Shown piece by piece: positions 15,141 through 63,987 of a stretch of 64,000 nucleotides of DNA. This DNA is from a virus. Below the pieces are notes generated by a model, which was given only the letters and a program-made list of their open reading frames with translations, was not told the DNA's origin and searched no databases. How positions within the stretch are numbered: position 1 is the first letter of the stretch; each line of letters begins with the position of its first letter. The translations under genes were made by a program, and so were the position numbers. Location of the stretch: IMG/VR virus record IMGVR_UViG_3300005253_000070; one strand, written 5' to 3'.

Positions 15141-15583
15141 CAAGAAAGCGACAGGCGGAGGTGACATTGGGATACGACATGCCCGACATACAAATCTTCT
15201 GGAAAAGGTCTCGTGGTGGATTGGAGTTTGGTGCGCCTATCACCTGCGTAACGTCTCACGTACTGGTTGATGGGGAGGTGGTTGAGTTTCCAAGGGCAGT
15301 AGCTCAGCTATTTCCTGGTGGATCAGCACAGGTATGCATCAGTCAGTCCAAAGAAATCAGCTGGATACTAGCAGGACCAAACAGAAGGTTCGTTCAAATG
15401 ACAGCCACTCTGTGGCTGTTCTATCTGGCATCCCTTAACGATGCTGCAATGGACAGCCTTACCTTGGACCTAGAAGATAAGGGGGAAGATGACACGGAAG
15501 AAGTGATGACAACACTCGACAGCATTCAGGCGTTCCTAAAATCAGAAGATAAGAAGAAAGGTACAACAGATGAAGCTGAGTGA
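15131..15583 (+). CDS. hypothetical protein (true start probably downstream: TTG 15167 or ATG 15179)
   Basis: 150-aa track ORF whose first ATG lies inside the predicted -10 box. GGAG at 15157-15160 favours an in-frame start at 15167 or 15179. Confidence 0.5.
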   Translation: MILSRKRQAEVTLGYDMPDIQIFWKRSRGGLEFGAPITCVTSHVLVDGEVVEFPRAVAQLFPGGSAQVCISQSKEISWILAGPNRRFVQMTATLWLFYLASLNDAAMDSLTLDLEDKGEDDTEEVMTTLDSIQAFLKSEDKKKGTTDEAE

Positions 15584-15905
15584 GTTTCAGGCAGGACACA
15601 AGGCGCTCGCCACCGAGATAGCCAAGATCATAAGAGCGGATATTTTCGAGACTACGTCCAAGCAACGAACATACACCCTCAACCGGCTGGAAAAGATGTC
15701 AGCATCGATCAGACAGGCAGACAAGATCTGCGCCCTGCTTGACACAGAGCCCAATTCTCCAGGGGAGGTCGCTCCTGTTTTTGGGGCGGCCATCGAGGAT
15801 GCTGTGCCGGTCACGAATGTGGTCAACATATCCGCCCCAAGCAAGGAAGACGAGTCTCCGACAGAAGAGAAACCTACTACCAAAGCAGGTCGACGCAGTA
15901 AGTAG
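15570..15905 (+). CDS. hypothetical protein
   Basis: 111-aa ORF overlapping the upstream stop. No motif recognised. Confidence 0.5.
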   Translation: MKLSEFQAGHKALATEIAKIIRADIFETTSKQRTYTLNRLEKMSASIRQADKICALLDTEPNSPGEVAPVFGAAIEDAVPVTNVVNISAPSKEDESPTEEKPTTKAGRRSK

Positions 15906-15962
15906 CCCGATCGAGGAAGGTGAGACTCTCTTGAGTGGCAGGCATCTTGGGAGTTTGGAGAA

Positions 15963-15999
15963 GTTGCATCCGCCTCTGCGGGTGGATGGGGATTGAAAC
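15963..15999 (+). repeat. solitary CRISPR-repeat-like unit A (37 nt)
   Basis: GTTGCATCCGCCTCTGCGGGTGGATGGGGATTGAAAC. Has an 8-bp stem (positions 5-12 paired with 19-26, one G-U), a 6-nt loop and a 3' ATTGAAAC. Lies between the stop at 15905 and the ATG at 16009, with no adjacent second repeat. Confidence 0.7.
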
Positions 16000-16008
16000 A
16001 AACAAACG

Positions 16009-16455
16009 ATGTATAGAGTAGGCATCTTGGAAGTGTGGCAAAGAAACATTCTTGTCGAAGCCGAAACGAAAGCAGCGGCTGTTGAGGCTGTGCTATCTTC
16101 CAAGGTGCCTGCTATGCAAGAAAGTCTGACCTACTTACGTATCTTAGATCCAAAGGAGTGGATGGTAGAGTCCACAGAGCCAGAGGAAATTCTAGCAGAA
16201 GCACTCGGTCTTGTTGGAGCACTATGCTCCATTATACAGATGAGTGGAGGAGACAAACGTGAGGTACTAGAGAGAGCAAAAGCGTGGGAAAACAGGTTCC
16301 TCGCATTTGCACAGGATGCTCAAGAGGCAGATGAACAACCAAGCAGAGTACAAGGCAACGAAGACGGAACAGATGAGCCTGACTTCAGTGGAGATGCTCT
16401 TCTCGGGGATAGTAAAATCCCTAAGCAAGCTGGGATATGGGACGTCAGTGGATGA
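16009..16455 (+). CDS. hypothetical small acidic protein
   Basis: 148-aa ORF starting 9 nt after repeat unit A. Codons 5-12 are duplicated upstream of the repeat. Confidence 0.55.
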   Translation: MYRVGILEVWQRNILVEAETKAAAVEAVLSSKVPAMQESLTYLRILDPKEWMVESTEPEEILAEALGLVGALCSIIQMSGGDKREVLERAKAWENRFLAFAQDAQEADEQPSRVQGNEDGTDEPDFSGDALLGDSKIPKQAGIWDVSG

Positions 16456-21342: not shown

Positions 21343-23853
21343 ATGTTGTTGGAAGCTATCTTCCGCACTCTGCGTCCGGATGAACAGGTCTACGTATGGA
21401 GAAAGGAGCCCCATGAGAGGTCGCTCTTCGATACAGTAGACGAGGTCATTGCCTACGCGAATAGCAACCCTGAGTCTGACTTGTACTTCGGTGTCTCTCC
21501 TCGAGTAAGGGGGGACTACGACACCATTAGCAGAACATGTGTTGCTTGGGCTGACGTGGATCTGAAAGACTTCAAAGACAATCCGGACAAAGCTGCGCGA
21601 GCTATAGCAACGTTCCCCCTAAATCCATCGTTCATCATCAACTCCGGGCATGGCTTCCATGTCTATTGGTTGCTGGAAGGAGAGGTAACAGGAGCAGAAG
21701 CCCAAGAGATATGCCGTGGAATAATGCGGATCGTTGGGTCGGATCCTACTCACAACGCTCTGCAGATTCTGCGCATACCGGGAACGACGAACTGGAAAGA
21801 TCCCAACGAGCCTGCTTTAGTCGTTGTGATGGTATCCAACCCAGGTACCAGATACGACGCCGGCGACCTCTTGAAACTCACCAACCTTGGCGAAATCACG
21901 ATAAACGTGATTGCCACAGGGTCGACAAAGGGATTTCCGTCTCGGAGCGAGCGTGACTGGCATGTGATTCGTGAGCTTACGGCTGCGGGAGTGTCGGAAG
22001 AAACCATTTACACCATCGCAGACCAGAAGCCAGTGGGTGAGCGATGGAGAGAAAATGACTATCGTCTCTTAAAGCACGACCTCCAGAAAACTGAAAGCTC
22101 CTATGGCGATGCAGTAGAAAAGTTCATAGAGCTGCAGGACTGCCTCTTCTATAAAGGAGCAAGGGGCCTTACCCAGGTATCCACATTCACTATACACCCA
22201 AAGAAGCTTCTCCACGACGCCGAGGGAATCAGGGAGGATCAGCTTATATGCATCGTGTCAGCCGCAGGAAAAGTGTGGAACGATGTCTTGTTTCCCAGAA
22301 GCGCCTTCTCCTCCCAATCAAGTTTGCACAGAAACCTCCCGTCTATGTTCTGGCAATGGATGGGAAATGACTACCAGACTAAGCAGCTGCTTGTATACCT
22401 TCTTAGCCGGCTAGAGGAAGCTGGCCTTCCGGAGGCGAAGCTAACGCAAGTCATTGGCAGGCACAGCAACATATGGGTAGCTAAGGACATCGTCATGTCC
22501 AGCACCACGGTGTACAATGCGGATGACGCGGAGTACCTATATCGATCCCGATCATGGAGTGGACATCATGCACGTATCATAGACATTGCCCCGAACACAC
22601 AGTATTCCTTCCCAGAGGATGAGGACTACAGAGCGCTGTGTAAAACGATCAGTAGGCTTCTCCCACGCATTAACGTGCCAGAGAATTCCATCCCCATCAT
22701 TGGGTGGTTTTTTGCTGCGCCGTTGAAGCAGCTATTCAACGACGTACAAATTCGTTTTCCCCACCTAAACATCTTTGGCACTATGGGCAGTGGAAAGACT
22801 GCAGCTCTGCAAGATATTTTCATGCCGCTCATGGGTGTACACAGGCCTACCACTCAGACAGCAACGACCACGAACTTTGTTCTTCGTGCGATCATGGCAT
22901 CAACGAACGGTGTGCCGATCATCTTTGGTGAGTTTCGTGAGTCTGGAGCCAGCGAAAGAAGCGACTTTCAGTCTCTCCTTAGACGAGCCTACAACTCAGG
23001 GATGGATTCGAGGGGTAGAGCAGACCTCAGGACAGAAACATTGCTCCTCCTTGCCCCTGTGATAGTGGATGGAGAGGATTCTTTCTCCGATCCAGCACTG
23101 AAGCAGCGATGTATTACTATCAATCTGCATCCAGAGGACATCCGTCCAGGAACTGAGCATAACAGTGCATTCAAGCGGCTTCGTGAGTTCCCCCTGCAGA
23201 CATTTGCTGCCCGATACATACAGAGAACCCTAAAAGAAACTGGTGCTAGCCTACTGAAAAGGTACGCAGACGCTGCCAAACGGATAGAAAAGCTACTGCC
23301 TAAATCGCTCCCTGACCGCGTTAAAAACAGCTGCGTCATAGTGCAGATTGGATTGGATCTCTATAATGAGCACATGACCAAGTGGGGGACGAAGGGGGTT
23401 GAGTGGGACGAGAGCATGATCAAGGCCAACCTCAGCAACTCTCTACTGCAGTTGTCTCGGGGCATATCCAGAACGTATGTAGATGACTTTACTGAGGCCA
23501 TCGTTGGCGAGTTAGCGAAGGAAGTGATCCAACGGGCCTCCCCGTTCGTGTACCTATACGACATTAGGCTTAACATCCTCTGGGTTCATCTGACAACAGC
23601 CGTACATTGGTGGGAGAAGACCCAGCGATACCGTGGAAAATCTTCTGTTGCCATGGTAGCTTTGAGAGCACAGCTCCAGGAACGCTGTGATCCTGTTGAT
23701 GGATATGTGATTCCCGAGACGCCAATGACGAGCTCATCAGGAGCGACGACGAGATGCTTTGGACTGAGGCTAACTGCCTGTGTTGACGCCGGGCTCAATG
23801 TTCCGGATAGACTTAATGGAAAGGTACAAAAGATCATGGATAGAGTGATATGA
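21343..23853 (+). CDS. bifunctional AEP primase-polymerase / P-loop helicase
   Basis: 836 aa. AEP motifs WADVDLKD, SGHGFHVYWLL and LRIPGTTNWK, followed by Walker A FGTMGSGKTA in the C-terminal half. Confidence 0.85.
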   Translation: MLLEAIFRTLRPDEQVYVWRKEPHERSLFDTVDEVIAYANSNPESDLYFGVSPRVRGDYDTISRTCVAWADVDLKDFKDNPDKAARAIATFPLNPSFIINSGHGFHVYWLLEGEVTGAEAQEICRGIMRIVGSDPTHNALQILRIPGTTNWKDPNEPALVVVMVSNPGTRYDAGDLLKLTNLGEITINVIATGSTKGFPSRSERDWHVIRELTAAGVSEETIYTIADQKPVGERWRENDYRLLKHDLQKTESSYGDAVEKFIELQDCLFYKGARGLTQVSTFTIHPKKLLHDAEGIREDQLICIVSAAGKVWNDVLFPRSAFSSQSSLHRNLPSMFWQWMGNDYQTKQLLVYLLSRLEEAGLPEAKLTQVIGRHSNIWVAKDIVMSSTTVYNADDAEYLYRSRSWSGHHARIIDIAPNTQYSFPEDEDYRALCKTISRLLPRINVPENSIPIIGWFFAAPLKQLFNDVQIRFPHLNIFGTMGSGKTAALQDIFMPLMGVHRPTTQTATTTNFVLRAIMASTNGVPIIFGEFRESGASERSDFQSLLRRAYNSGMDSRGRADLRTETLLLLAPVIVDGEDSFSDPALKQRCITINLHPEDIRPGTEHNSAFKRLREFPLQTFAARYIQRTLKETGASLLKRYADAAKRIEKLLPKSLPDRVKNSCVIVQIGLDLYNEHMTKWGTKGVEWDESMIKANLSNSLLQLSRGISRTYVDDFTEAIVGELAKEVIQRASPFVYLYDIRLNILWVHLTTAVHWWEKTQRYRGKSSVAMVALRAQLQERCDPVDGYVIPETPMTSSSGATTRCFGLRLTACVDAGLNVPDRLNGKVQKIMDRVI

Positions 23854-26225
23854 AAGACGACCACCACGAGAGCAAGTTTCCTGCAGCGCACAACTGTCAC
23901 GACTGTCCACTTCGAGATACCCCCGGTATGGTGGGTCGCGGCGTAATCGATGAGACGACGGGGCGTGTCAACGTCCTCATCATCGGTGAGGGTCCTGGGC
24001 GTGAGGAGGTTAGAAAGAAGCAAGTATTCATCGGACCAAGTGGAGCTCTTCTGTACAAGACGATGCGAAGCATCAATCTTGGATCCTCCTTCTGGCTCAC
24101 AAACTCAGCCCTGTGTGCAAGCAAGGACGCAAAAGAGAAGCGAGCAGCATCCCTCTGTTGTGAGGATAGGCTTAGACATACAATAGCAGAACTCAGACCA
24201 CGCATCATCATGACTCTCGGCAACATTCCAACTGACATCTTGCTTGGGAAGGGTGAGGGGATAACGGCTAGGCGTGGTTCCGTAAACAAGGTACAGATCA
24301 CGAAGGAGTTCTCAACCATTGTCGTACCAACAGTGCATCCTGCTGCTGTCCTAAGAAACAACAACTGGCTAACTGACTTCGAAAGCGACTTCATACGTGT
24401 GTCACGAATACTGTTTGGGAAGTACAAGGTAAGCCTAGAAAGTAAAGAGGTAGAGTACACAGTTACGGCAGACTATCCAATGGTGCTTGCTGAAGCAGAA
24501 AGAAGCGTCTTCGCTGTGCTTGACTTGGAAACCACAGGGTTAGATATGACTCGCGATCGTCTGCTGTGCGCCGTAGTAGCCACAGACTGGCATGTTTACA
24601 TCATCGAAAAGAGAGTGATGTACTCACCCTGGTTCGCAAATGCCCTGGAGCATTGCACAGCCAGGTGGAGCGGTCACAATGCCAAGTTCGATCGAAACTT
24701 TTTGATAAAGCAGATCGGCTGCTACGTAGATTTCGCATACGACTCCATGTTGGCTCACTACCTATTTGATGAGAGACAGGGAAATCAAGGACTCAAGAAC
24801 ATTTGCCGTAGACTGTGGAGTGCTCCCGACTGGGAGGCCCCTGTTCGTAGCATGCTAAAGAGAAGAGAGATCAAGGACTACGGCGATCTTCCGCTCGACC
24901 TGCTGTACAAGTATGCAGCCCACGATGGCTACTGGCAGAGAAGATTAACCATTTACACAGGCAAGTTGCTTCTCAAGGACAGCAAAAAGAAGTGGGTATT
25001 TGATACTCTGCTCATGCCTGGAAGCCGTGCCCTTTCGCAGGCAGAGGTTAGGGGTGTAAAGGTCGATCAGGAAGCGCTTGAGCCACTGAAGGAGAGATAC
25101 GAGGAGGTGCGAAAAGCCAAGGAGATGGAGCTCATTTGCATAGCAGGGAGAGACTTCAATGCCCGATCCCCACAGCAAGTAGCCGAGATCATGTTTGATG
25201 AGCTAAACCTTCCGAAGCTCAATGGACGGTCGACAGCGGCTAAAACCGTGTTGCTTAGGTATCCCTTTCCCAGACACCCATTCGTAGAAACGCTGCTTGA
25301 CTATCGGGAGGTGGACACGCTCTTGACCAGATACATCAACGGCTTGATTAAGAACATCTCCCCAGATGGCTACGTCCATTCCTCCTTTAGCCTAAGTGGC
25401 ACAGTCACAGGGCGGCTGTCCTCCAGCAAACCTAATTTGCAGAATCAGCCCAGTCGTGTGCCCTCTGCGAAGAAGGACATTCGCGATCTGTTCATTGCCG
25501 AGCCTGGCGACGTTTGGTGCGATTGTGACTTCAGTCAGCTCGAGTACCGAATGATTGCAGTCTTGTCACAAGACCCGTATCTACTGCAGTGCTACAAGGA
25601 GGGCAAGGATTTCCACGCTGAAATGGCAGAGATGATCTGGGGTCCCGACTGGACAAAGGCTAATAGAACGGATGCGAAAGGAATCAACTTCGGCCTTGCT
25701 TACGGACGATCGGTTAAGGGCATCATGTCAGATGGCACACTGGACATCGACTACAACACAGCCCTTCGGGTGGCAAGCACGTTCTTCAAGCGCATGCCAG
25801 GCGTAGTGCGCTTTAATGCAGAGACAAGAGGTTTCGTCAAGACACACAGGTATGTGGAGACCCCACTAGGCCGTGTGCGTAGATTTCCTGAAGTTGCTCT
25901 GGCCAAGAATGAGTGGCAAATGGGTCGCATCTACCGAGAAGCAATCAACATGCTACCCCAGAGCACAGCGAGTGATGCAACACTGTATGCGTTCATCAAC
26001 CTACACAAGCGCGGCTTTGATGTGAGAATCACTGTTCACGATTCGATCGTTGTCTCCGCGCCGGCTGACCAGGTAGAGCACGCCGCCAGGAATCAGATGA
26101 GCATCATGTCTAAGAGTGCTGCTGAGCTGTTCGGTGACCAAATCCCATTCCCCACAGATGCACAGATCGGAAAGCGATGGGGATCCTTGAAAGAATTGAA
26201 AATGACACAAGGAGGAGAAACGTGA
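23850..26225 (+). CDS. family-4 UDG-like domain fused to family A DNA polymerase (3'-5' exo + pol)
   Basis: N-terminus: CHDCPL, IIGEGPGREE, FIGPSG and VHPAAVL (UDG4 motifs). Exonuclease: VLDLETTGL, HNAKFD, YAAHDG. Polymerase: DFSQLEYRM, RTDAKGINFGLAYG, VHDSIV. Confidence 0.9.
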   Translation: MKDDHHESKFPAAHNCHDCPLRDTPGMVGRGVIDETTGRVNVLIIGEGPGREEVRKKQVFIGPSGALLYKTMRSINLGSSFWLTNSALCASKDAKEKRAASLCCEDRLRHTIAELRPRIIMTLGNIPTDILLGKGEGITARRGSVNKVQITKEFSTIVVPTVHPAAVLRNNNWLTDFESDFIRVSRILFGKYKVSLESKEVEYTVTADYPMVLAEAERSVFAVLDLETTGLDMTRDRLLCAVVATDWHVYIIEKRVMYSPWFANALEHCTARWSGHNAKFDRNFLIKQIGCYVDFAYDSMLAHYLFDERQGNQGLKNICRRLWSAPDWEAPVRSMLKRREIKDYGDLPLDLLYKYAAHDGYWQRRLTIYTGKLLLKDSKKKWVFDTLLMPGSRALSQAEVRGVKVDQEALEPLKERYEEVRKAKEMELICIAGRDFNARSPQQVAEIMFDELNLPKLNGRSTAAKTVLLRYPFPRHPFVETLLDYREVDTLLTRYINGLIKNISPDGYVHSSFSLSGTVTGRLSSSKPNLQNQPSRVPSAKKDIRDLFIAEPGDVWCDCDFSQLEYRMIAVLSQDPYLLQCYKEGKDFHAEMAEMIWGPDWTKANRTDAKGINFGLAYGRSVKGIMSDGTLDIDYNTALRVASTFFKRMPGVVRFNAETRGFVKTHRYVETPLGRVRRFPEVALAKNEWQMGRIYREAINMLPQSTASDATLYAFINLHKRGFDVRITVHDSIVVSAPADQVEHAARNQMSIMSKSAAELFGDQIPFPTDAQIGKRWGSLKELKMTQGGET

Positions 26226-49080: not shown

Positions 49081-50046
49081 CTACAAACTTTCCTGAAGTA
49101 CGTTATCCTCAATCCACCTATAGGTAACTGAGAGTCCTGCCTCTAAGGGAATGCTAGGAGCCCACTTTAGGATTTCGTTGATTCTATCGTTGTTCGAATT
49201 TCGACCACGAACACCCTGTGGACCATCGATATGCTTCTTTTGTATCCTCACACCTGCAATCTCTGCGATGATGTCGGCAAGCTCATTGATAGAGACTAGC
49301 CTGTCACTGCCCAAATTGAGAGGATACGGGTAGTCCGAGCGCATAAGCCTAAGAATCCCCTCGATGCAATCATCTACCAGCATAAATGATCGCGTTTGCT
49401 CTCCATCACCCCAGATCTCTATCCTCGGTTCCCAGGAGGTTCTTTTTCCTTCAGCAATCTTTCTGCAAAGAGCAGCAGGAACCTTCTCTGCATTATCATT
49501 CCAAGATCCCTTCGGCCCATAGACATTATGAAACCGAGCAATCCGCGTAGTCATCCCATAGTCTTCTGCATAGGAAAGGCAGAGTTGCTCCATACACAGC
49601 TTCTCTAGGCCATAGGTATCCTGAGGATCGGCAGGGTAAGCATCATCCTCTTTTAGTCCTAGAATGTCTGTCCGTTCCTGCTTGAAATTTGGGTAGACAC
49701 AGGCGGAGGAACTGTAGAAGAAGCGACCTACTCCGCCTGTCCTTGCAGCCTCAAGAATATGTGTGTCTATAAGTAGGTTGTCATGCAGAATGGATGCGCT
49801 GTGAGAGGAGATGAAGCCCATACCTCCCATAGAAGCCGCCAAGTGGTATACCTCATCTATTCCATCCACAGCGATATAGCACGTGGCTCTGTCTCGCAGA
49901 TCACCAAAGAAGAAATCGTCGCATGGAATAGGGCCATACCGTGGTTTAGCAATGTCTGCTCCACGTACCCAATACCCTTCTTCCTTCAACCGCTTTGCCA
50001 AATGTCCGCCGATGAACCCTGACACACCTGTTACAAGTGCCTTCAT
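49081..50046 (-). CDS. NAD-dependent nucleotide-sugar epimerase, GDP-mannose 3,5-epimerase-like
   Basis: 321 aa with VTGVSGFIGGHL, SSSACVYP and YGLEKL (Y-x3-K). Long blocks (ASMGGMGFI, RFHNVYGP, WGDGEQTRSF) resemble GME as I remember it. Confidence 0.8.
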   Translation of the reverse strand: MKALVTGVSGFIGGHLAKRLKEEGYWVRGADIAKPRYGPIPCDDFFFGDLRDRATCYIAVDGIDEVYHLAASMGGMGFISSHSASILHDNLLIDTHILEAARTGGVGRFFYSSSACVYPNFKQERTDILGLKEDDAYPADPQDTYGLEKLCMEQLCLSYAEDYGMTTRIARFHNVYGPKGSWNDNAEKVPAALCRKIAEGKRTSWEPRIEIWGDGEQTRSFMLVDDCIEGILRLMRSDYPYPLNLGSDRLVSINELADIIAEIAGVRIQKKHIDGPQGVRGRNSNNDRINEILKWAPSIPLEAGLSVTYRWIEDNVLQESL

Positions 50047-51365
50047 CTTTGCTCCGATACACCAATGTAGCGCATCTTGATCTTCTTGGAGTTCTGTATT
50101 TTGCCCCTGAGAATTCTCCAGCAGTCAACAACTGTTCCCTGCTTCTGCCTCTGCTCGAAATCAGACTGAGAAATCTGGGCAAACTGCTCTGTGCGATTTG
50201 CGATGATTATGACGTCTGCCTTTTTCAAACAAGCCCCTAGAGACCAAGGCTCAATGAATTCTGGAAGAGACATCTGCCTCATCCTCTCGTCATATCCTAC
50301 AACTCTTACATCCTTAGCTGCCATCCTTCTAGCTAGTTCTATGGAAGGCGATCCAATCATACATGGAGTTCCCGATTTGTATGACAACCCTAGAATGGCA
50401 ACAGTACCTTTTTCACTGAGACATCCGGTAGCAATATCAACAAGTCTTCTCCACCTAGCCTTATTGGATCTGCTTACAGCCCATGGAAAGTTGCCTGGGA
50501 TACAAAGATCTTCTACAATCTCTTCAAAGGCCCTCACATCTCGAGGAAAGCAGGTTCCCCCATACGGCATTCCCGCTATGAAGTATTTCTTTCCGACCCT
50601 AGAGTCAGATCCAACAGCAGCGGAGACCAAGTCGATATCACCACCAGGGAAGCGCTCACAAATGTCCCCAAGAAGATTTGCGAATGCTATCTTCGAAGAA
50701 ACAAACATGTTGATCCCCATCTTGACAATCTCTGCATTAGTGAGTGACATCTGGTGAATCTGATGTGGTTCTACCAGCATTGTTGAGAGTATAAAGCCGA
50801 CCAAACCAACTCCAGCCTGCTGACCAGACTGTCCCACGATAACAAGGTTCGGGTTCAGGTAGTCTTCTATGACACTGCCTATGGCAACAAGCTCAGGATT
50901 GTATGCAAGTTCCCAGCTGTCACCACAGGCGTATCCCGACGCCTGTTCGATCGCCGGCTTGATCACTTCCTCCATCGTTCCTGGCATGAGCGTACTCATC
51001 ACGGAGATGATTCTACTGTCTCCATATGGCACTGTACCTCGGATGGCCTTTCCGATCCGCTTGCACACATCCAGCACATATTCATGAGAAAACTTCCCAT
51101 TTTTCAGGCTGGGTGTTGGTACCAGTACACCAATGACATCTGCACCATGCACACCTTGCTTCAGGTCAGTGGACGCGGAAAAGCTCCCCTTTACAGCGGA
51201 CATCATTTGCTTCATGTGGGGCTCATCCACAGGAGAAATCCCTGCGTTAATCTTATCCACAACCTTTCTGTTTTTGTCTATTCCAATGACATCATGGCCT
51301 CTACTGGCGATGGCAGCCGCTATCGGTGCCCCCAACTTTCCCAGCCCAACTATTGTGATGTTCAC
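50043..51365 (-). CDS. nucleotide-sugar 6-dehydrogenase (UDP-glucose/GDP-mannose dehydrogenase family)
   Basis: 440 aa. Has N-terminal IVGLGKLGAPIA and the catalytic-Cys motif GGTCFPRDV. Confidence 0.85.
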   Translation of the reverse strand: MNITIVGLGKLGAPIAAAIASRGHDVIGIDKNRKVVDKINAGISPVDEPHMKQMMSAVKGSFSASTDLKQGVHGADVIGVLVPTPSLKNGKFSHEYVLDVCKRIGKAIRGTVPYGDSRIISVMSTLMPGTMEEVIKPAIEQASGYACGDSWELAYNPELVAIGSVIEDYLNPNLVIVGQSGQQAGVGLVGFILSTMLVEPHQIHQMSLTNAEIVKMGINMFVSSKIAFANLLGDICERFPGGDIDLVSAAVGSDSRVGKKYFIAGMPYGGTCFPRDVRAFEEIVEDLCIPGNFPWAVSRSNKARWRRLVDIATGCLSEKGTVAILGLSYKSGTPCMIGSPSIELARRMAAKDVRVVGYDERMRQMSLPEFIEPWSLGACLKKADVIIIANRTEQFAQISQSDFEQRQKQGTVVDCWRILRGKIQNSKKIKMRYIGVSEQR

Positions 51366-51988
51366 CAGTTTTCCCTAATCCATATTGTCGTTTTCTTATC
51401 CCTCTTCCCATGCGTGAACCAGTTTCTTTGCACGAGAATCGGCTTGGTTGCTCCAAGAAACTTGCCTTTCACGCTTTTTGCTCTTTCTGCGCCTATTCGC
51501 TCCGCTGTCCATGGAGTAGCATGTCTTCGTAGCAACCGACGAAACACACCTGTTTGCCAAATGGTTCCCTTTTGTGAAAACAAAAACGGATTATCTTTGG
51601 CCATCCTAACGAAAAGAGCATCGCGTTTGTACGGCGTCCCCTTCGTTGTGAATCTCTTCGACAGCCTAACCATGCAGACTGAGGAATCTTCAGTTAGGGC
51701 AGCTAGCGCCCGAGCAATCCTTCGCGGATAAATCTCTACGGGGATGAGATCATCTAGGCAGAGCATCATTAGCTCGTCATGCATGTGATGGCGAAGGAAC
51801 AAATGCAGATTGTCCGCAAAGCCAAGATCTTTTCCCAGCTTGATGACCGTTGCATCAACGTCTATGTTCTCTTCGTTTGTGATGACAATCACGTCGTAGG
51901 GACACTGTGGCCAAAGTTTCCGAAGAAAATGAATGTGTGCCGGGATAGTATGGGCATACTTGTCACAAGTGGGAATGACAATCTTCAC
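51362..51988 (-). CDS. hypothetical protein, tandem paralog A (possible GT-A-like, CLDDL)
   Basis: 208 aa. Starts MKIVIPTCDKYAHTIPAHIHFLRKLWPQCPYDV, near-identical at the N-terminus to the upstream gene. Confidence 0.5.
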   Translation of the reverse strand: MKIVIPTCDKYAHTIPAHIHFLRKLWPQCPYDVIVITNEENIDVDATVIKLGKDLGFADNLHLFLRHHMHDELMMLCLDDLIPVEIYPRRIARALAALTEDSSVCMVRLSKRFTTKGTPYKRDALFVRMAKDNPFLFSQKGTIWQTGVFRRLLRRHATPWTAERIGAERAKSVKGKFLGATKPILVQRNWFTHGKRDKKTTIWIRENW

Positions 51989-52644
51989 CAGTGACGCTCA
52001 ATCCACCTGGTTACGAACTTGTCCTTTCGTCCCCGATGGGAGATCCAATTCATCTGCTCCAGGGTAGCGTGGGTAGCCCCAAGGTTCATCCCTCCTCTAC
52101 TTCTTAGCCTGGCAGTGCCATTTCCTTCTGTGCGTGTTGATGTCTCTCCTCCCTCAAGAATCGATTGATGAACTGACGATCTCCACAGGGTGGCCTTGTT
52201 TGAGTACGTATACCTATCTCTGCGCATATGCACGTAGATATTGTCAGGCCCATAGCGATCGTGTGGCTTTTCTAGTGGTCGCTTGACCCAACGCTCCGCC
52301 AGCCGAATCTGATTGACGACACGATCTGCAGAGACTACTGTTACTGCCTCCTCGATGAGAACGCCATCAATATGAAACGGGACCAAGTCATCCATGCACA
52401 AGATGAAAAATTGATCATCTTGAAGGAACCTTTTATGCGTCTCAAGAAAGTTGCTGGCCCACAGCCTATCTTGACCAAGGTGCTCTATCCTAGCATTGAT
52501 TTCCTTGGCATGAGGAACGGGAGCAGATCCTCCAACGACCACCAGCACCTCGTATGGGCAGGAAGGCCACAGCTTGTGGAGGAAGTGAACATGTGCGTGA
52601 ATCGTATGCACATACTTGTCGCAGGTGGGGATGACAATCTTCAT
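51985..52644 (-). CDS. hypothetical protein, tandem paralog B (CMDDL)
   Basis: 219 aa. Starts MKIVIPTCDKYVHTIHAHVHFLHKLWPSCPYEV. Confidence 0.5.
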   Translation of the reverse strand: MKIVIPTCDKYVHTIHAHVHFLHKLWPSCPYEVLVVVGGSAPVPHAKEINARIEHLGQDRLWASNFLETHKRFLQDDQFFILCMDDLVPFHIDGVLIEEAVTVVSADRVVNQIRLAERWVKRPLEKPHDRYGPDNIYVHMRRDRYTYSNKATLWRSSVHQSILEGGETSTRTEGNGTARLRSRGGMNLGATHATLEQMNWISHRGRKDKFVTRWIERHW

Positions 52645-53393
52645 TTGTACCCCCAGCGAGCCATGTATTTTTTGCAGCTTCTTTCAATCATCCTCACCTG
52701 AGTGTGATTCAGCCAGGTTTTCCAGTGGCCAGAAGTTCCGAACACGACAGCAGGAAGAGAAGGGAGCACCGGGTGCTCTCTGGGGGGATTCTCCCCTGCC
52801 TTCTCCAGCTTCCTTCTCTTTTTCCAGTACTCATCTTTTGCCTTCTGCTGATCTGGCAACCTGAATGGGTTGGTAAGTGTCCTTGCCTCTTTTAGGGAGA
52901 TGGCGATGCCCAAGAAAGTGGCGATCCGCAATGCCTCTGCAGATAGATCCTCAATCATCACCTCAAACTTTGAGACGTGGATCATGTTTCTTGGAATTTT
53001 ATCTACCCACATGTCAAACCAGCCAAGCCACATGGGAAGCTTTTCATTTATCACTGTCTTCCCAGAAAACTCACCGATCTTCCCAGAGCGTCTTGCTCGC
53101 TCCTGCATGGAGACGAAGATGTCTCTAGGATCTCGAACAGTTCCTACCACCCGAATGCGCCCCTCCTTTAAGAACCGCGCAGCTGTCTCTGACTCGTCTG
53201 GTAGATACCGAAAGACTTTGCAGATGACGAGCTCGTCTTCGTCCTTGTCGTGCTCCACCAGCCTACTCTCCTTGTGATAGCCTATCCCCCTTCCCCTGTT
53301 TGCGTGTTCAACTATGGCAGCCGCTATTCTATTCTGCGTTGTTGATCCTGTACGATACGTCCCTGTGACGAATACCCATATAGGTGCACTCAT
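52641..53393 (-). CDS. PAPS-dependent sulfotransferase
   Basis: 250 aa with AGGAGG RBS. Has a 5'-PSB-like TGTYRTGSTT, a 3'-PB-like VRDPRDIFVS and a C-terminal GTSGHWKTWL. Confidence 0.7.
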   Translation of the reverse strand: MSAPIWVFVTGTYRTGSTTQNRIAAAIVEHANRGRGIGYHKESRLVEHDKDEDELVICKVFRYLPDESETAARFLKEGRIRVVGTVRDPRDIFVSMQERARRSGKIGEFSGKTVINEKLPMWLGWFDMWVDKIPRNMIHVSKFEVMIEDLSAEALRIATFLGIAISLKEARTLTNPFRLPDQQKAKDEYWKKRRKLEKAGENPPREHPVLPSLPAVVFGTSGHWKTWLNHTQVRMIERSCKKYMARWGYK

Positions 53394-54346: not shown

Positions 54347-54370
54347 ATAAGGGAGGGCCGAAGCCCTCCC
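54347..54370 (-). terminator. intrinsic-terminator-like hairpin downstream of capsid gene
   Basis: On the - strand: GGGAGGGC-TTCG-GCCCTCCC followed by TTAT. Lies 84 nt after the capsid stop. Confidence 0.5.
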
Positions 54371-54395
54371 TGATGAATACGACACACAGAACCAC

Positions 54396-54432
54396 GTTTC
54401 AATCCCCATCCACCTCTGTGGGTGGATGCAAC
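54396..54432 (-). repeat. solitary CRISPR-repeat-like unit B (37 nt)
   Basis: The - strand reads GTTGCATCCACCCACAGAGGTGGATGGGGATTGAAAC, 30/37 identical to unit A with the same stem register. Lies in the 3' UTR of the capsid gene. Confidence 0.7.
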
Positions 54433-54453
54433 TAGCTCCTACAAACGAAGTGT

Positions 54454-55887
54454 TTACCACTCCTTGTAGTAGCTTGGCGGCGTCGGGTAGTACTCGTCTC
54501 CACCCTTCTCGAAGTACGGGCTGGATGGGAAGGGCTCACGCAGATGCTGGAGCGGCTCGTACATGATGTTCTCGAGACGACCGGCTAGTTGGGGAGTCCT
54601 GAGCACCACTCGGGGCTCAATTTTCCCCTGGAACTTGAAACAGTAATTCAAGTTCTGCATGCTCCACATGTATCGGCCCCCATCGGTAACCCAAAACTGT
54701 CCCTTGTTCCGTAGCACAGCCAGATCGCCCTGAGCCTGTGAGTAGTCCAGATACTCCCAGTACAACGTCCTCATCCCCTTCGCCCGAAGCGGAAGGATGT
54801 AGATGTCGCTGGCAAACTGACCAGGGATCAGGTTTGCATTGGTCGCGTTATTGTCTTCGAAAATACCGTCATCAGTGATGACCGGAACCTGGAGACCGTT
54901 GATCCAGAGGTACTTTCCCCTCCGCATTTCGTCTCTCATGTTCACATTCGTCGCATCATTCATGATCACGACATTCGTACCCGCAGAGTTTGCACATCGA
55001 TCGGTGAGATACTGGCAGGGCCATACGGCGCTCAGCTCGAAGAAAAGCTGCGGTCGCATAGCAATGACCCAGTCCACAGGATCGAGGCTCATGCGCTCGG
55101 CGTTGTGGGTCAGATACTGCATCATCATCGAGAGATACTGAACGATGCTAGGAGAGGCTCCATCGATGCTGTTGAATCCAAAGTCTTTGATGTCTGAATC
55201 CAAAGCAGGGCAAGGAGACTGGCTGAGTGCGTCAACCTTTCCAGTCGAGACCAGGATCTCAAGTCCAGGAAACTCCGCATATCCGCCGTTGGTGTTGTTC
55301 ACAGGGTTGCCCTGGAAAAGCATCCTCGTAAGCCACCGCTGAAACTCAATGCCGATGATGACGAGCTGCGACTGAACAACAGAGTTCAGCCATCCGCCCT
55401 TGGGAACACCTTCCTGAGTCAACAGCTGATGACCCTCACCAATGACATCACCTAGAAGGCGAAGATCTGTGGTGAGTTTGTTATTCAACACCTGCATTAG
55501 CGTGTTGACTTCCATCTCTTTCGAGCTTCGTGCCACACGGCCAAAGGCAGCAGTCTGATGACAGACCTCGAGAACACCACCAGGGGCGTCATCACAGGGG
55601 CCATCCGGCTCAGCCGATCCATCCCCCTCAAAGCCGGTGAGGAAGGGGTAGATTGGGTTCAGGTAGACTGTTGGGATTGCCGGAATCATACCCGACATGC
55701 CCCGAGGAGAAATAGACGCATTGATAACCGTGTCTTCAAGACCAAAGTTGCTGAAGAAGCCCTTTGGTCCGAAGACGAGCTGTGCATTAGGAACACCGGA
55801 GATCGCCTTTTGCTGGATTTGATTACCAGCGAGGAGGGCGAGAGTCTTGTTGATGCCCTCCAAAATTGCAACTGTTTGCCTATCCAC
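54454..55887 (-). CDS. major capsid protein candidate (by position and size)
   Basis: GTG at 55887 lies 7 nt after GGAGGG. The track ORF extends to 55902 without an RBS. About 477 aa, directly after the protease/scaffold gene. No motif verified. Confidence 0.55.
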   Translation of the reverse strand: MDRQTVAILEGINKTLALLAGNQIQQKAISGVPNAQLVFGPKGFFSNFGLEDTVINASISPRGMSGMIPAIPTVYLNPIYPFLTGFEGDGSAEPDGPCDDAPGGVLEVCHQTAAFGRVARSSKEMEVNTLMQVLNNKLTTDLRLLGDVIGEGHQLLTQEGVPKGGWLNSVVQSQLVIIGIEFQRWLTRMLFQGNPVNNTNGGYAEFPGLEILVSTGKVDALSQSPCPALDSDIKDFGFNSIDGASPSIVQYLSMMMQYLTHNAERMSLDPVDWVIAMRPQLFFELSAVWPCQYLTDRCANSAGTNVVIMNDATNVNMRDEMRRGKYLWINGLQVPVITDDGIFEDNNATNANLIPGQFASDIYILPLRAKGMRTLYWEYLDYSQAQGDLAVLRNKGQFWVTDGGRYMWSMQNLNYCFKFQGKIEPRVVLRTPQLAGRLENIMYEPLQHLREPFPSSPYFEKGGDEYYPTPPSYYKEW

Positions 55888-57895
55888 TTTTGTTCCCTCC
55901 ACCGAGGAATGTGTCCATTAGGGCATCGCCCATGTCCTGGACAACACCTGCCCCGACGCTTTCTTGGTCGGCCTTTTCCTTCGCCGCTACAGTAGCATTA
56001 GGATCAACGGTTTTTGGATCGGTCGACGGACGAGTAAGCGATGCGCGAGTCGATTGATTCCGTCGCAGCGCCTGTACCTCAAATGAGACGGAGGCGAGTT
56101 GGTCAGACATCTCTTTCACCAAGCCGGCTAGAGCTTCCTGCCCTTCGTCAGCAGTGAAATTCGGTGGATCGGAGGCGACTTCTTTGGCCTTTTTCTTGGC
56201 CTTGCCGTCCTTACCATCCTCGTCGTCTTCGTCTTCCTCTTCATCTTCCTGTTTCTTCTTCTTGGCCTTCTCAGCCAAGGAGAGGAAGGCTACCTTGAGT
56301 TCACAGTCTGGCAGGTCACCCATCGCCTTTATGAACAAGTCATTTGGGTCAGGTTCCTGGGTGTCTTCCTTCTCCTCCTGGTCGGGAATGTGTGACACGA
56401 AGACAGCAGCACTCTTGAGTATCTGCTTGTGATCTTCGTTTTCCTCCGCGTCGACCATCATCAAGAGCTCTTTCACCAGGTTATCTCGTGAGATCTCCTC
56501 GTCCTTGAAGATGGCATCCGGCTCGACTGACTTAGCATTGATTCCATCCGCCTGAGAGACTGCTTTCGTGGCCAGTTCATCGCCGAGCAGCTCTCGGAGA
56601 ATGGCAATCTTGTGTTGCAACATTTCTGGTTCTCCTTCAGTAGTGATCCGAGAGAAGACATTCGCAGACTGCTGGACAGGAAGTAATGATCTCTCTAGGA
56701 TCGCAATGCTGTGATAAACGTTATTGACTCTTTTTCCTCGCACATCGACGTTGCGTTCCTTATCTGTTGGGTCAGAAAGGAATGCAATGCTGATCGCCCA
56801 TCTTTCAGGGTGCCTCGATGTTTCTTTCCTGGCCTGCTGGCTAACTGCATCGTTGTACCACAGGCCGGATTCTATCAGACACAACCCATCGTGCATCGCA
56901 AAGTCGCAGTTGCCGAAGTCGACACCCCTCACGTGCCAAAAACGCAGTGGACCACGGTCTTTGACCACACTGTCTGCAGACCTCTCCAATGCCTTGGAGG
57001 ATACGATGTCAAACTCACGGTCCATGAAAGCAGTGGACGAAATCGATACCCAACGATATTGTCCATCATGCTGCTTTGTGGTGAAGAACACGTTCTGCCC
57101 CTTGGTGATCGCAGGCTCTGGTGCTAACTCCTTCGTCAGCATCTGCCCCAACGAGGACCACACCTGGGAGAACTTATCCTTCCAACTCTTCGGCTTTGCT
57201 CGCGTTCCCATGAGAGGTGCTCCACAATCGGGGCAGACCTTGTCTACACAAGCTGCACCCTTCGAGTGGTCTCCGGAGTAGCCGCACTCCTTGCAAACAC
57301 AGGTGCCTACTCCATCCTCTAGGACCGCTTTCTCTTGCCCTCCTGATTTTATATCCAACAGAGCAGGGGCTGGAAGAACACTGGTCCCGTCTGATTTCCG
57401 CGTCTCCTCGGTCACCGACGCTCCCTCTTCCTGCTCAGAAAGAACTTTGTCCACAGACAGGTTTACTTGCCTGTGCGAATGCTCCATGCCCCATCCCTTG
57501 TGTGTTTTCCCCGCAAGGTAGGTTGCAATCTTGTCCCACGTTTCCGGAGTTATCTCTGCTACCTCGTCAAGCCATACCAAAGGAGATCCTAAGGCATTCT
57601 CCTTTTTCACAGGCCATGACACCACACCAACTCGCGGAAGCTGCAGGTGATGCTGCACGGAACCGTCTTTGGGGATAGCACCCGTGTTCATCCCAAGTCG
57701 CCATGCGAGATCCGCGACCAGTTGAACAAGGAGGTCCTTCTGCCTACGCTCCTCAGAAGACTCAATCGCACCTATTTGCGCCACTGCGGCCTCCCTACTA
57801 TCGTGACATCCCATTGACTTCCCTGCGGCTGTTCCGTCTGGGGACTTCTTGAACACACAATGCTGTCCGCCTTGCATAACGATGGTGTATGGCAT
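55880..57895 (-). CDS. prohead protease / scaffold fusion candidate with internal zinc ribbon
   Basis: 671 aa. The central region (RFWHVRG...ISIAF...ILERSLLPVQQSAN) resembles HK97-type prohead proteases. Also has CKECG...CPDCG, the acidic run QEDEEEDEDDEDGKDGK and a helical C-terminus. Confidence 0.5.
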   Translation of the reverse strand: MPYTIVMQGGQHCVFKKSPDGTAAGKSMGCHDSREAAVAQIGAIESSEERRQKDLLVQLVADLAWRLGMNTGAIPKDGSVQHHLQLPRVGVVSWPVKKENALGSPLVWLDEVAEITPETWDKIATYLAGKTHKGWGMEHSHRQVNLSVDKVLSEQEEGASVTEETRKSDGTSVLPAPALLDIKSGGQEKAVLEDGVGTCVCKECGYSGDHSKGAACVDKVCPDCGAPLMGTRAKPKSWKDKFSQVWSSLGQMLTKELAPEPAITKGQNVFFTTKQHDGQYRWVSISSTAFMDREFDIVSSKALERSADSVVKDRGPLRFWHVRGVDFGNCDFAMHDGLCLIESGLWYNDAVSQQARKETSRHPERWAISIAFLSDPTDKERNVDVRGKRVNNVYHSIAILERSLLPVQQSANVFSRITTEGEPEMLQHKIAILRELLGDELATKAVSQADGINAKSVEPDAIFKDEEISRDNLVKELLMMVDAEENEDHKQILKSAAVFVSHIPDQEEKEDTQEPDPNDLFIKAMGDLPDCELKVAFLSLAEKAKKKKQEDEEEDEDDEDGKDGKAKKKAKEVASDPPNFTADEGQEALAGLVKEMSDQLASVSFEVQALRRNQSTRASLTRPSTDPKTVDPNATVAAKEKADQESVGAGVVQDMGDALMDTFLGGGNKSG

Positions 57896-61645: not shown

Positions 61646-63987
61646 TACGGCTCCTTGATCACGGTGTCTATGTTCGTGCCGCCGCTGTTGAGCAGACCCC
61701 AGTAGAGGATCGTCGGCAGCACGGCAAAGTTCACTGGCTGATTGATCGTCGCTACTGGAATCCCAGCCACTGAGAGTTGCATGAAATGGCCGCGCCAATA
61801 CAGCTCCAAGAACAGTTCGTCATCTGCGGCCCATGCTCCAGCAGCAGCCCAGTTGACGGTTTGCGCGCCGCCGCCATCATCGAATCGCGTGTCTACTGTG
61901 TTGAGCACCGTCGCTCGTACCCGTGCATAGTTGGCTGCTGCGCCAAAGGCGTCTAGCAACGTGACCTCGGCGCCTTCCCAGAATGCCACCAGGTTGGCTG
62001 GCACATGTCTTAGTCTACCCCGCCACACGATATGCCCGCTTCGCGCTTTGAGCCGGTTAAGCACGGGCTGCGTCAAGGCGTCGTAGCCGTCTACCCGAAT
62101 GCCGCCTGATTCGAGGCTGTTTGCTTCGCTGGCGGGTGTCACCGTGAGGGCGACATCGTCTAGAGCGACCAAGTAGGCATCATCAGCATACCCAACTCCT
62201 GCGGTTTCCGCCTTGATAAGGGGACGCAGGTTATTGAACACGGATCGGAATATCGCACGCGTATCAGACCAAGCCGCAGCCGCTGTTGAAAGATAGGAAA
62301 ACAATGTTGTGGAATTCTGCAATAGCCCGCGGCTCGATGCCCAAGCCCCTATTCGTAACTGCCCAGACGAAGCATATGCCCATGTTCCCAGCATATAGAA
62401 TTGCCCACCAGCTACACCAGCATCAACATAAAGTCCCTCGCCTATCACGGCACCGCCAAGGAACTCTATACACTCACGTCCGCTATGAATGATTCCCGCA
62501 CCAGCGGTACTGGCTTGCGCATCACCGGGATCAAGTCCTTGATTTACCCACCCGTCTGGTATCCAAGGATTCCCCGCGCCCGTTTCGAGCGACGGGTTGT
62601 CGATCAGGTTCTCTTGGACCTCGCACTGATGAACATAAAGTGTACCTGCGTTGTTGGCCGACAGCACTTTAACGGAGATACTCACGCAGTCTGCGCCAAC
62701 ACCGTTGCGCGCTATCGTGGGTAGTTCGAAGCAGAACGTCTCCGCCCAGGGATGCCGAATCGCCAAATCCCATGTGATCGTAAACGTATCGCCGGTATCC
62801 CAATCATCATCCCCGCCGCCAGCGAGAGCAGCCGTGATTGTTAGCCCATCCCCACTGATAGCTGTGATTGTCCCGCTACTACCGTCCGCCGTATTATTGA
62901 TCGTCGCGCCCATCAAAGACTGTGGGAAATGACCCGTCGCATCTGTGAGCGTTGCGGAGCCATTTGCTCCTGTATGTGTGCCCGTATATGTTGGTCCATC
63001 GAATACAACAATGTCTGCGCCGTTGGTTTCGTCGTGTATCGTGATCCTCGGATGCACAGTGCCGTCAGAATGGACAACAGCACGCACGACGTAGTTCTCG
63101 CCAGCATCTAGGCCCGCAAGCGTCTGCGTGATCCCCTCATCCGCTGCGTCTACAGTGATTTGGTACCCGCCGGCCCCAAAGAGCTGATTAGCTGCGACAG
63201 CAATGTCAGCAGGGCCTGCGGAGGGTGTGCCCTCAGTCCCCCACGCACTCGCGCCGTAGGTCGTTTCCATCCAGGAATCGTCGAGCACCGCGCTTGAATG
63301 AGGATGCGACCACGCTTCGCCTGCGCCGGTGACGAGAGCGCCGGTGCTGCTGTCAGTGGGCATGGCGAACACCACGTCCCAGCTACCCGTCGTCAGCGTC
63401 GGGTCTGCGCCTGCGCCAGCGGCGTAGATGGCGGCAAGCTCATCTCCATTTCCGACGTCGGTGCCGTATGCGCCATCCCACAAGACACGGCGGTAGATCG
63501 TCAAGCCCTCGATGATTGCGTTGGCGGAATTGACCGGAATCTGAGTGGACCCAATGTAGGCCGGAGTGGCTGGCTGACCCAAAAAGGGCAGGTTTGCGTC
63601 CCGTCCGAAGCTATGGACATCATCAATAGAAATAGAAATTCTATTCGCGCCGTCTAGTGTGTTGGTCGCATCCCAACGGGCCACGATACAGTATGTGGTG
63701 CCAGCAGTCCATGCCGAAACGTCCACAGAATGTAGCGGCCCCGTGATATTGGCTATCCGTAGCCCCAGGAGCCCGGCGGCGGTCTTGTCCAGGCTCATCC
63801 AGTTGGTAGCCCACGGGCTTAACGCATGAACAAGGCCGTCGTCACCATCCCATTCGGGCGTAACCCAAAACACAATAGAGCCCTGCGTTTGGTCAAAGTT
63901 GGCGTACCACGTAGGGGCGACAACGCCAGCACCACGCGAGAACCTCGCGCTGTCCGGCGTCCCGCTCCCGTCCCATGCGCCCTGCAT
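61645..63987 (-). CDS. large ConA/LamG-like plus CBM-like carbohydrate-binding protein (start near window edge, unverified)
   Basis: 780 aa. The N-terminus (GSIVFWVTPEWDGDDG...ISISIDD...IEGLTIYRRVL) looks like a LamG jelly-roll. An internal segment NLIDNPSLETGAGNPWIPDGW is CBM4/9-like. G+C is visibly higher than in the rest of the window. Confidence 0.55.
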   Translation of the reverse strand: MQGAWDGSGTPDSARFSRGAGVVAPTWYANFDQTQGSIVFWVTPEWDGDDGLVHALSPWATNWMSLDKTAAGLLGLRIANITGPLHSVDVSAWTAGTTYCIVARWDATNTLDGANRISISIDDVHSFGRDANLPFLGQPATPAYIGSTQIPVNSANAIIEGLTIYRRVLWDGAYGTDVGNGDELAAIYAAGAGADPTLTTGSWDVVFAMPTDSSTGALVTGAGEAWSHPHSSAVLDDSWMETTYGASAWGTEGTPSAGPADIAVAANQLFGAGGYQITVDAADEGITQTLAGLDAGENYVVRAVVHSDGTVHPRITIHDETNGADIVVFDGPTYTGTHTGANGSATLTDATGHFPQSLMGATINNTADGSSGTITAISGDGLTITAALAGGGDDDWDTGDTFTITWDLAIRHPWAETFCFELPTIARNGVGADCVSISVKVLSANNAGTLYVHQCEVQENLIDNPSLETGAGNPWIPDGWVNQGLDPGDAQASTAGAGIIHSGRECIEFLGGAVIGEGLYVDAGVAGGQFYMLGTWAYASSGQLRIGAWASSRGLLQNSTTLFSYLSTAAAAWSDTRAIFRSVFNNLRPLIKAETAGVGYADDAYLVALDDVALTVTPASEANSLESGGIRVDGYDALTQPVLNRLKARSGHIVWRGRLRHVPANLVAFWEGAEVTLLDAFGAAANYARVRATVLNTVDTRFDDGGGAQTVNWAAAGAWAADDELFLELYWRGHFMQLSVAGIPVATINQPVNFAVLPTILYWGLLNSGGTNIDTVIKEP

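Follow-up and report, generated by a model that had tools for sequence, protein, structure and literature searches.

Introduction

Solitary CRISPR repeat units (SRUs) were reportedly first catalogued by Faure et al. in 2019, and virus-borne mini-CRISPR arrays are said to act in inter-viral conflict, following Medvedeva et al. in the same year. The viral SRUs catalogued now number 2,103, and RacrIC1, an RNA anti-CRISPR (Racr) of type I-C that lies 11 nt past a gene and is co-transcribed with it, inhibits I-C interference (PMC10651486). Type I-C systems operate without Cas6, and their repeats are processed by Cas5c, which recognizes its cut site together with the bases that follow. An 11-nt 3′ tail after the stem-loop, the future 5′ handle, is typical of I-C repeats, while mutations in the loop leave processing by BhaCas5c unaffected (PMC8524198).

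Here, we analyze a solitary repeat, termed unit B, in a 64,000-nt stretch of phage DNA (IMG/VR record IMGVR_UViG_3300005253_000070; hereafter the window). Since both solitary repeats and a Racr of type I-C are known from earlier work, unit B opens no new category. Like the Racrs and viral SRUs of Camara-Wilpert et al. (2023, PMC10651486), it is a single intergenic repeat mimic on a phage, in both sequence and hairpin. It shares with RacrIC1 the type I-C assignment and a position shortly after a gene, although the two sequences are unrelated as far as can be judged without a direct comparison. Unit B follows a capsid gene, unlike the Racrs linked to acr genes, and its phage, unlike that of RacrIC1, carries two diverged copies, one per transcription arm. 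Its class is also longer, at 37 nt (4 + 8-bp stem + 6 loop + 11) versus 32 nt for the canonical I-C repeat.

The direct repeats of type I-C (CRISPR-DR9, RF01322) have the same 11-nt 3′ tail (...GGAUUGAAAC), with the stem-loop immediately 5′ of it and a loop that can vary. Arrays of the family discussed below stand beside Cas1c, Cas4, Cas8c, Cas7, and Cas3, whereas unit B is solitary and phage-borne. The first base of the handle is G in unit B and U in the Bacillus halodurans repeat (PMC8524198). Viral crlRNAs ("Cracr") and the host CreA/CreR RNAs likewise combine a repeat-like element with a short non-repeat segment. Unlike these, unit B has no pseudo-repeat, the segment that follows it mostly predates the repeat, and no complementarity to cas or toxin promoters was found in the host and viral loci searched. 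Virus-borne mini-CRISPR arrays resemble unit B in placing a repeat on a virus without cas genes; they contain at least two repeats flanking a competitor-matching spacer, whereas unit B is one repeat with no target found.

Layout of the locus

An earlier note, drawn from the letters of the window alone, had proposed a CRISPR-repeat-like unit on the minus strand at 54432-54396, placed 21 nt past the capsid stop (54454-54456) and followed in order by 25 nt, a hairpin, and TTAT. Letters, distance, and order were all as claimed (Table 1), and the unit has counterparts in genuine CRISPR arrays, with a stem that covaries across the family.

Table 1. Coordinates of unit B, its parts, its neighbors, and the second repeat unit of the window.
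Feature	Coordinates	Strand	Sequence or remark
Major capsid protein gene, HK97 fold	54454..55902	-	482-aa ORF; assigned by AlphaFold2 and Foldseek
Segment from capsid stop codon to unit B, 21 nt	54433..54453	-	ACACTTCGTTTGTAGGAGCTA
Unit B, 37 nt	54396-54432	-	GTTGCATCCACCCACAGAGGTGGATGGGGATTGAAAC
Unit B, 5′ tail	54429-54432	-	GTTG
Unit B, 5′ stem arm	54421-54428	-	CATCCACC
Unit B, loop	54415-54420	-	CACAGA
Unit B, 3′ stem arm	54407-54414	-	GGTGGATG
Unit B, 11-nt tail	54396-54406	-	GGGATTGAAAC
Predicted Cas5c cleavage site	54406..54407	-	between last stem base (54407) and first tail base (54406)
25 nt after unit B	54371-54395	-	GTGGTTCTGTGTGTCGTATTCATCA
First 10 nt after unit B	54386..54395	-	GTGGTTCTGT; not alignable to relatives
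Last 15 of the 25 nt	54371..54385	-	GTGTCGTATTCATCA; ancestral 3′ UTR
Hairpin, then TTAT	54351-54370	-	GGGAGGGC-TTCG-GCCCTCCC; terminator or mRNA-stabilizing
Next gene downstream, 303 aa	53418..54329	-	no family match; own RBS GGAGGG directly after hairpin
Unit A, second solitary repeat	15963-15999	+	GTTGCATCCGCCTCTGCGGGTGGATGGGGATTGAAAC; replication-gene arm

Unit B sits in a 124-nt intergenic gap, in sense with its transcription unit, and the centroid RNA fold contains both its own hairpin and that of the capsid gene. Of the two routes by which a Racr candidate may be expressed, an own promoter within ~250 bp or co-transcription with the gene before it, this orientation fits the second. The latter had been called a terminator; the hairpin itself is present and folds, but no T-run follows it and it fails a simple terminator scan. 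Upstream of unit B, no sigma-70-like promoter was detected by a scan that does not extend to the promoter types of the presumed host group.

An Rfam scan of the whole window returned units A and B as its sole credible matches, both to CRISPR-DR9 (30–31 bits; E = 0.006 and 0.0095). At 30.1 bits (E 0.0095), unit B falls below the gathering score of that model, 45 bits. The same scan gave a weak match to the fluoride riboswitch model (62167-62220, minus strand, 20.3 bits, E = 0.36) inside a 780-aa ORF, which is probably due to chance. No second repeat, even a degenerate one, was found in the window, where the best other match (19/31) is at the level of shuffled sequence (18–21). Two independent assemblies from marine sediment (runs SRR1555748 and SRR1555744, project PRJNA259156) are identical in sequence, which rules out a chimera or assembly artifact as the origin of unit B; the longest contig of this project that carries the window measures 83.6 kb.

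The 482-aa ORF upstream of unit B has more than 1000 homologues, unannotated, and matches no family or PDB sequence. Its AlphaFold2 model (pLDDT 74.9, pTM 0.73) retrieved only phage capsids or encapsulins among the top 50 Foldseek matches, with best E-values of ~1e-8. The capsid identity proposed for this gene was thus upheld as an HK97 fold, and with matches confined to HK97-fold capsids and encapsulins, the predicted model justifies the term capsid 3′ UTR. Translation likely starts at the GTG at 55887, giving 477 aa, and a 477-aa product is on record.

The phage is organized in two convergent arms. TerL and the structural genes occupy the minus arm; the plus arm encodes a PD-(D/E)XK nuclease, an AAA_24 ATPase, PolA fused to a UDG domain, and an SNF2 helicase. 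The fusion is a single ORF (23850-26225, plus strand) in which a family A DNA polymerase carries an N-terminal domain of the uracil-DNA-glycosylase superfamily. No cas genes were found among the ~40 ORFs scanned, and no acr gene was recognized near unit B in a scan run without an Acr-specific library. Nearly all flanking ORFs were without a match in PHROGs, Pfam, and PDB sequences, and a near-identity search of phage nucleotide sequences with the part of the window from 50 to 58 kb gave no match.

Directly after the capsid gene lies a block of sugar-modifying genes (50043-53393, minus strand) whose content varies among close relatives. In the window, it includes a sulfotransferase (52641-53393) and a UDP-glucose/GDP-mannose dehydrogenase (50043-51365). 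The corresponding block of a related contig, L165 (5945-11690), encodes a sulfotransferase, a TOD1_MUCI70-family protein, an NAD-dependent epimerase, and two methyltransferases.

Repeat family and CRISPR type

The family pattern GTTGCATCC-N12-GGATGGGGATTGAAAC was found at 34 metagenome loci, mostly arrays, with up to 47 repeats and spacers of 33–39 nt. Among the array repeats, GTTGCATCCACCAGCGATGGTGGATGGGGATTGAAAC is the most frequent (173 copies); it has the same letters as unit B at 31/31 non-loop positions and differs in the loop. No array carrying the loop CACAGA was found. Genes adjoining the arrays encode Cas1c (473 bits), Cas4, Cas8c/Csd1, Cas7/Csd2, and Cas3. Unit B is a member of a real CRISPR repeat family associated with type I-C.

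Over a set of 29 distinct repeats and SRUs, pairing holds in 99.6% of the cells of the 8-bp stem, and four of its eight pairs have changed on both sides. The covariation score was reached by 0/500 shuffles, and slid registers came nowhere close. The 4-nt head and the 11-nt tail are invariant across this set. The parts recognized by Cas5c are invariant or nearly so in the family while the loop varies freely, a pattern that fits the Cas5c recognition rule (PMC8524198). Cleavage by Cas6 with an 8-nt handle had been assumed for unit B; with type I-C cas genes next to the family arrays, the expected enzyme is instead Cas5c, and its cut is predicted to give the downstream fragment an 11-nt 5′ handle, GGGAUUGAAAC.

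In GTDB species genomes, the strict flank pattern had no match. With a looser pattern, 120 loci were retrieved and none shared the stem; the repeat class lies there mostly in Chloroflexota (Anaerolineae, Thermomicrobiales, Chloroflexia, Dehalococcoidia), Dormibacterota, and Armatimonadota. The exact tail GGTGGATGGGGATTGAAAC had 0 matches in IMG/VR. In reference genomes, the nearest repeats together with I-C loci or Cas proteins belong to Chloroflexota MAGs. We tentatively take the host of the phage to be probably a member of the Chloroflexota, an assignment in which named organisms stand only behind the less similar arrays and loci.

Sets of 231 and then 909 unique array spacers produced only null-level matches to the window and its relatives; consequently, the spacers give no direct sign that the phage meets such an I-C system. 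Spacer 17 of the L017/L030/L034 arrays has a 15-nt exact match to the hairpin region, which did not extend and was dismissed.

Unit A and the flipped core

Units A and B are the only matches to the two-flank pattern in the window, and 0 were obtained in 100 shuffles. Unit A lies 9 nt 5′ of the ATG of a 148-aa ORF without relatives in IMG/VR. The two units are identical at 30/37 positions; the differences are confined to position 10 and the loop, where none of the six bases agrees. Position 10 forms a G.U pair in unit A and an A-U pair in unit B, so the G to A change keeps the stem. These comparisons had been made in the earlier note and hold throughout, as does its observation that each unit is in sense with its own transcription unit. 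A contig from another metagenome (L011), 91% identical to 15311-16340, retains unit A (L011 632-668) with the change G10A (G.U to A-U) and two loop changes. The 5′ stem arm of unit A is that of L031-type arrays (CATCCGCC), and its 3′ arm is that of L034-type arrays (GGTGGATG).

The palindromic core of unit B had also been described as flipped relative to its flanks, and this was borne out. Compared with the A-type core of L004/L011, the 22-nt core of unit B agrees at 21/22 positions as the reverse complement and at 17/22 in the forward direction. On the plus strand, the cores of A and B run in the same direction and the flanks are inverted. The arrangement recurs in a single repeat of contig L016 (1012-1048), whose core is the exact reverse complement (22/22) of that of the L033 array repeat; relative to arrays L006/L010/L014/L033, only the core is flipped and the flanks keep their orientation. 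We speculate that flipped cores arise through loop inversion at the palindromic stem, via template switching or short-patch conversion. They are consistent with a functionally neutral loop.

Gain of unit B in the capsid 3′ UTR

Two relatives retain the capsid region without the repeat: L165, with 97% capsid identity and ~93% nucleotide identity, and L166, with 90% and 74%, respectively. Both carry the identical hairpin CAGGGAGGGCTTCGGCCCTCCC. L165 also keeps GTGTCATATTCATCA before the hairpin (GTGTC(A/T)TA...CATCA), 14/15 identical to the window. Relatives at 64–66% capsid identity have only a hairpin 3′ of the gene. Relative to these sequences, ~50 nt after the stop codon are swapped in the window for ~70 nt, comprising 21 nt, the 37-nt unit, and 10 nt. 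The 21-nt segment has no counterpart in the alignment and arrived with the repeat. A 20-mer of this segment is absent from IMG/VR, and when the gained flanks were tested as spacer remnants, they matched no spacer from the retrieved arrays and no IMG/VR sequence.

Since the repeat-less relatives keep the hairpin and the nucleotides that precede it, the hairpin and 15 of the 25 "spacer-like" nucleotides are older than unit B. The earlier proposal of a repeat / 25-nt / terminator module thus gives way to an insertion into an existing UTR. The alignments show unit B to be a recent gain. The relatives catch this gain almost in the act, which makes the locus useful for understanding how phages acquire repeat mimics. 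The hairpin CAGGGAGGGCTTCGGCCCTCCC (54350-54371, minus strand), with its C(UUCG)G loop, is 100% identical in L165 and L166, although identity in its surroundings goes down to only 74%, and is a strongly conserved 3′ element.

Proposed role of unit B

The earlier note had left two alternatives, a decoy (RNA anti-CRISPR) or a guide expressed from a single-repeat mini-array. The decoy is now the best-supported reading, as unit B is a genuine mimic with a covarying stem, sense-oriented and solitary. With moderate confidence, we regard unit B as a solitary repeat and candidate Racr that acts as a decoy against type I-C. It lies intergenically on a phage, as judged by TerL, the HK97-fold capsid, and PolA. 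Solitary repeats of the same class also occupy tight, co-oriented intergenic sites in unrelated viral contigs (L041, L044) or follow just after an ORF stop (L040/L043), and short metagenome contigs (L003/L022, L029) yielded further single ones. The features of unit B match those used to call SRUs and Racr candidates, and for this reason an I-C RNA decoy is rated most likely.

In such a mechanism, unit B would be transcribed within the 3′ UTR of the presumably abundant late capsid mRNA, and its RNA would form an 8-bp/6-nt hairpin with the 11-nt tail GGGAUUGAAAC behind it. Host Cas5c, then Cas7, may bind this RNA as they would the repeat of a pre-crRNA, with Cas5c probably cutting between G26 and G27. 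Tied up in such non-guiding complexes, Cascade subunits would be lost to the crRNAs that target the phage. At an earlier stage of infection, the same decoy would come from unit A in the replication-gene arm, and it is attractive to infer that the phage draws on an early supply from A and a late one from B. Several points speak against a decoy. An anti-CRISPR made late, along with the capsid mRNA, would be oddly timed. The closest relatives lack unit B, which shows no sign of purifying selection, although a young insertion looks intact anyway. Finally, none of the 909 spacers matches the phage, the CACAGA loop was found in no array, and the scan described above recognized no acr gene nearby.

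The main rival to the decoy is that unit B is a functionless recent passenger, a host array fragment or a copy of an A-type unit brought into the capsid 3′ UTR by illegitimate recombination, with not enough time to decay. Its absence from relatives at 93% and 74% nucleotide identity, which keep the remaining UTR, agrees with this origin, and the gained ~70-nt segment resembles a spacer end, a repeat, and a spacer start. Its flanks match no spacer or IMG/VR sequence searched, and unit B itself bears no mark of selection. We nonetheless consider a passenger unlikely. The phage holds two units, each in sense with its own arm; unit A is kept in the 91%-identical relative, where a change improves a stem pair; and the same class recurs, intergenic and co-oriented, in unrelated viral contigs. 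An exactly 37-nt unit with intact boundaries is, moreover, expected under selection for a mimic.

The guide alternative takes unit B as the source of a crRNA-like RNA, from a mini-array or as a viral crlRNA ("Cracr"), in which the handle, 25 nt, and hairpin load a shortened Cascade that targets a competitor or represses host cas or toxin promoters. The order of handle, 25 nt, and stable hairpin loosely resembles handle, spacer, and 3′ hairpin, and viral crlRNAs directed at I-C systems are on record (bioRxiv 10.1101/2024.10.29.618823). No site combining a TTC PAM with a seed match to the post-repeat segments of A and B occurred in 1.09 Mb of host and viral loci or in the window, and searches of the phage database returned only hairpin-driven matches with E-values of 0.02 or worse, so that the suggested protospacer check yielded no target. 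A single-repeat mini-array also lacks its second repeat: the hairpin was tried as a degenerate copy and rejected, as neither it nor the sequence past it resembles the repeat. The distance from handle to hairpin is 25 nt versus ~38–40 nt in arrays, and the hairpin with 15 of the 25 nt is ancestral UTR present in repeat-less relatives. Taken with the empty target searches, these points make a guide very unlikely. A related scheme, to which we give marginally less credence still, is that host Cas5c does RNA processing for the phage, yielding a short RNA of the 11-nt handle, 25 nt, and capsid hairpin. Here, the ancestral hairpin would replace the 3′ repeat hairpin, and the product might be a truncated Cascade, incompetent for Cas3, that serves in regulation or blocking.

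Two further explanations dispense with a CRISPR RNA, and we find either one extremely improbable. Unit B could be a cis element, an extra 3′ hairpin that stabilizes or processes the capsid mRNA independently of CRISPR, as its stable hairpin and location in the 3′ UTR would allow. The ancestral hairpin, however, already holds that role and is retained, and a generic stabilizer would have no need for single-stranded flanks, GTTG and GGGATTGAAAC, that match those of CRISPR arrays exactly. Alternatively, unit B could work at the DNA level, as a stretch of homology through which the phage recombines with host CRISPR arrays or integrates into them. SRUs were once proposed to permit viral integration into arrays (cited in PMC10651486), and the unit has 12 and 19 contiguous bp in common with array repeats. 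This homology is nevertheless very short, an integrase was not found among the ~40 ORFs scanned, and two units in opposite orientation on two arms would cause rearrangements; that both are strictly in sense speaks for a role as RNA.

If the decoy is functional, it would extend Racrs to a marine-sediment phage, probably of Chloroflexota, and to a 37-nt variant of the I-C repeat. It would also present a new layout of expression, in which a decoy rides in the 3′ UTR of a capsid mRNA and the replication-gene arm holds its second copy. Should processing by Cas5c prove true, together with the recurrent flipped-core units (B versus the A type; L016 versus L033), it would mark a distinct evolutionary route in which RNA mimics are built from existing terminators. 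The repeat match also serves as a host-range clue (type I-C, probably Chloroflexota), which matters for a phage clade of which nothing has been cultured and hardly any gene is annotated.

Other single repeats of the family

Several loci retrieved with the family merit separate description. In L041 (4451-4509; IMGVR_UViG_3300037067_002744), the solitary repeat lies between the copies of an 11-bp direct duplication, ATGCCTAAGGT. Through this duplication the upstream gene regains its stop codon and the downstream gene its start codon; the two genes probably overlapped before the insertion. The tail of this repeat, GGGGA, lies 7 nt 5′ of the downstream ATG and could act as a ribosome-binding site. 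L032 (6308-6344; JRHI01001535.1) has a single family repeat among cellular-looking neighbors (ABC transporter, MFS transporter, and enolase-superfamily genes); none of the 10 ORFs scanned is a cas gene. This repeat lies ~35 nt 3′ of a promoter-like TTGACA-17-TATCAT site and may represent a host regulatory crRNA-like RNA or a remnant. L075 (1376-1490; Thermomicrobiales MAG AC2.42) is a one-spacer mini-array composed of a full repeat, 38 nt, and a second repeat that decays past the stem (GTTGCACCCGCCTCGCGGGGCGGGTAGCCCACG).
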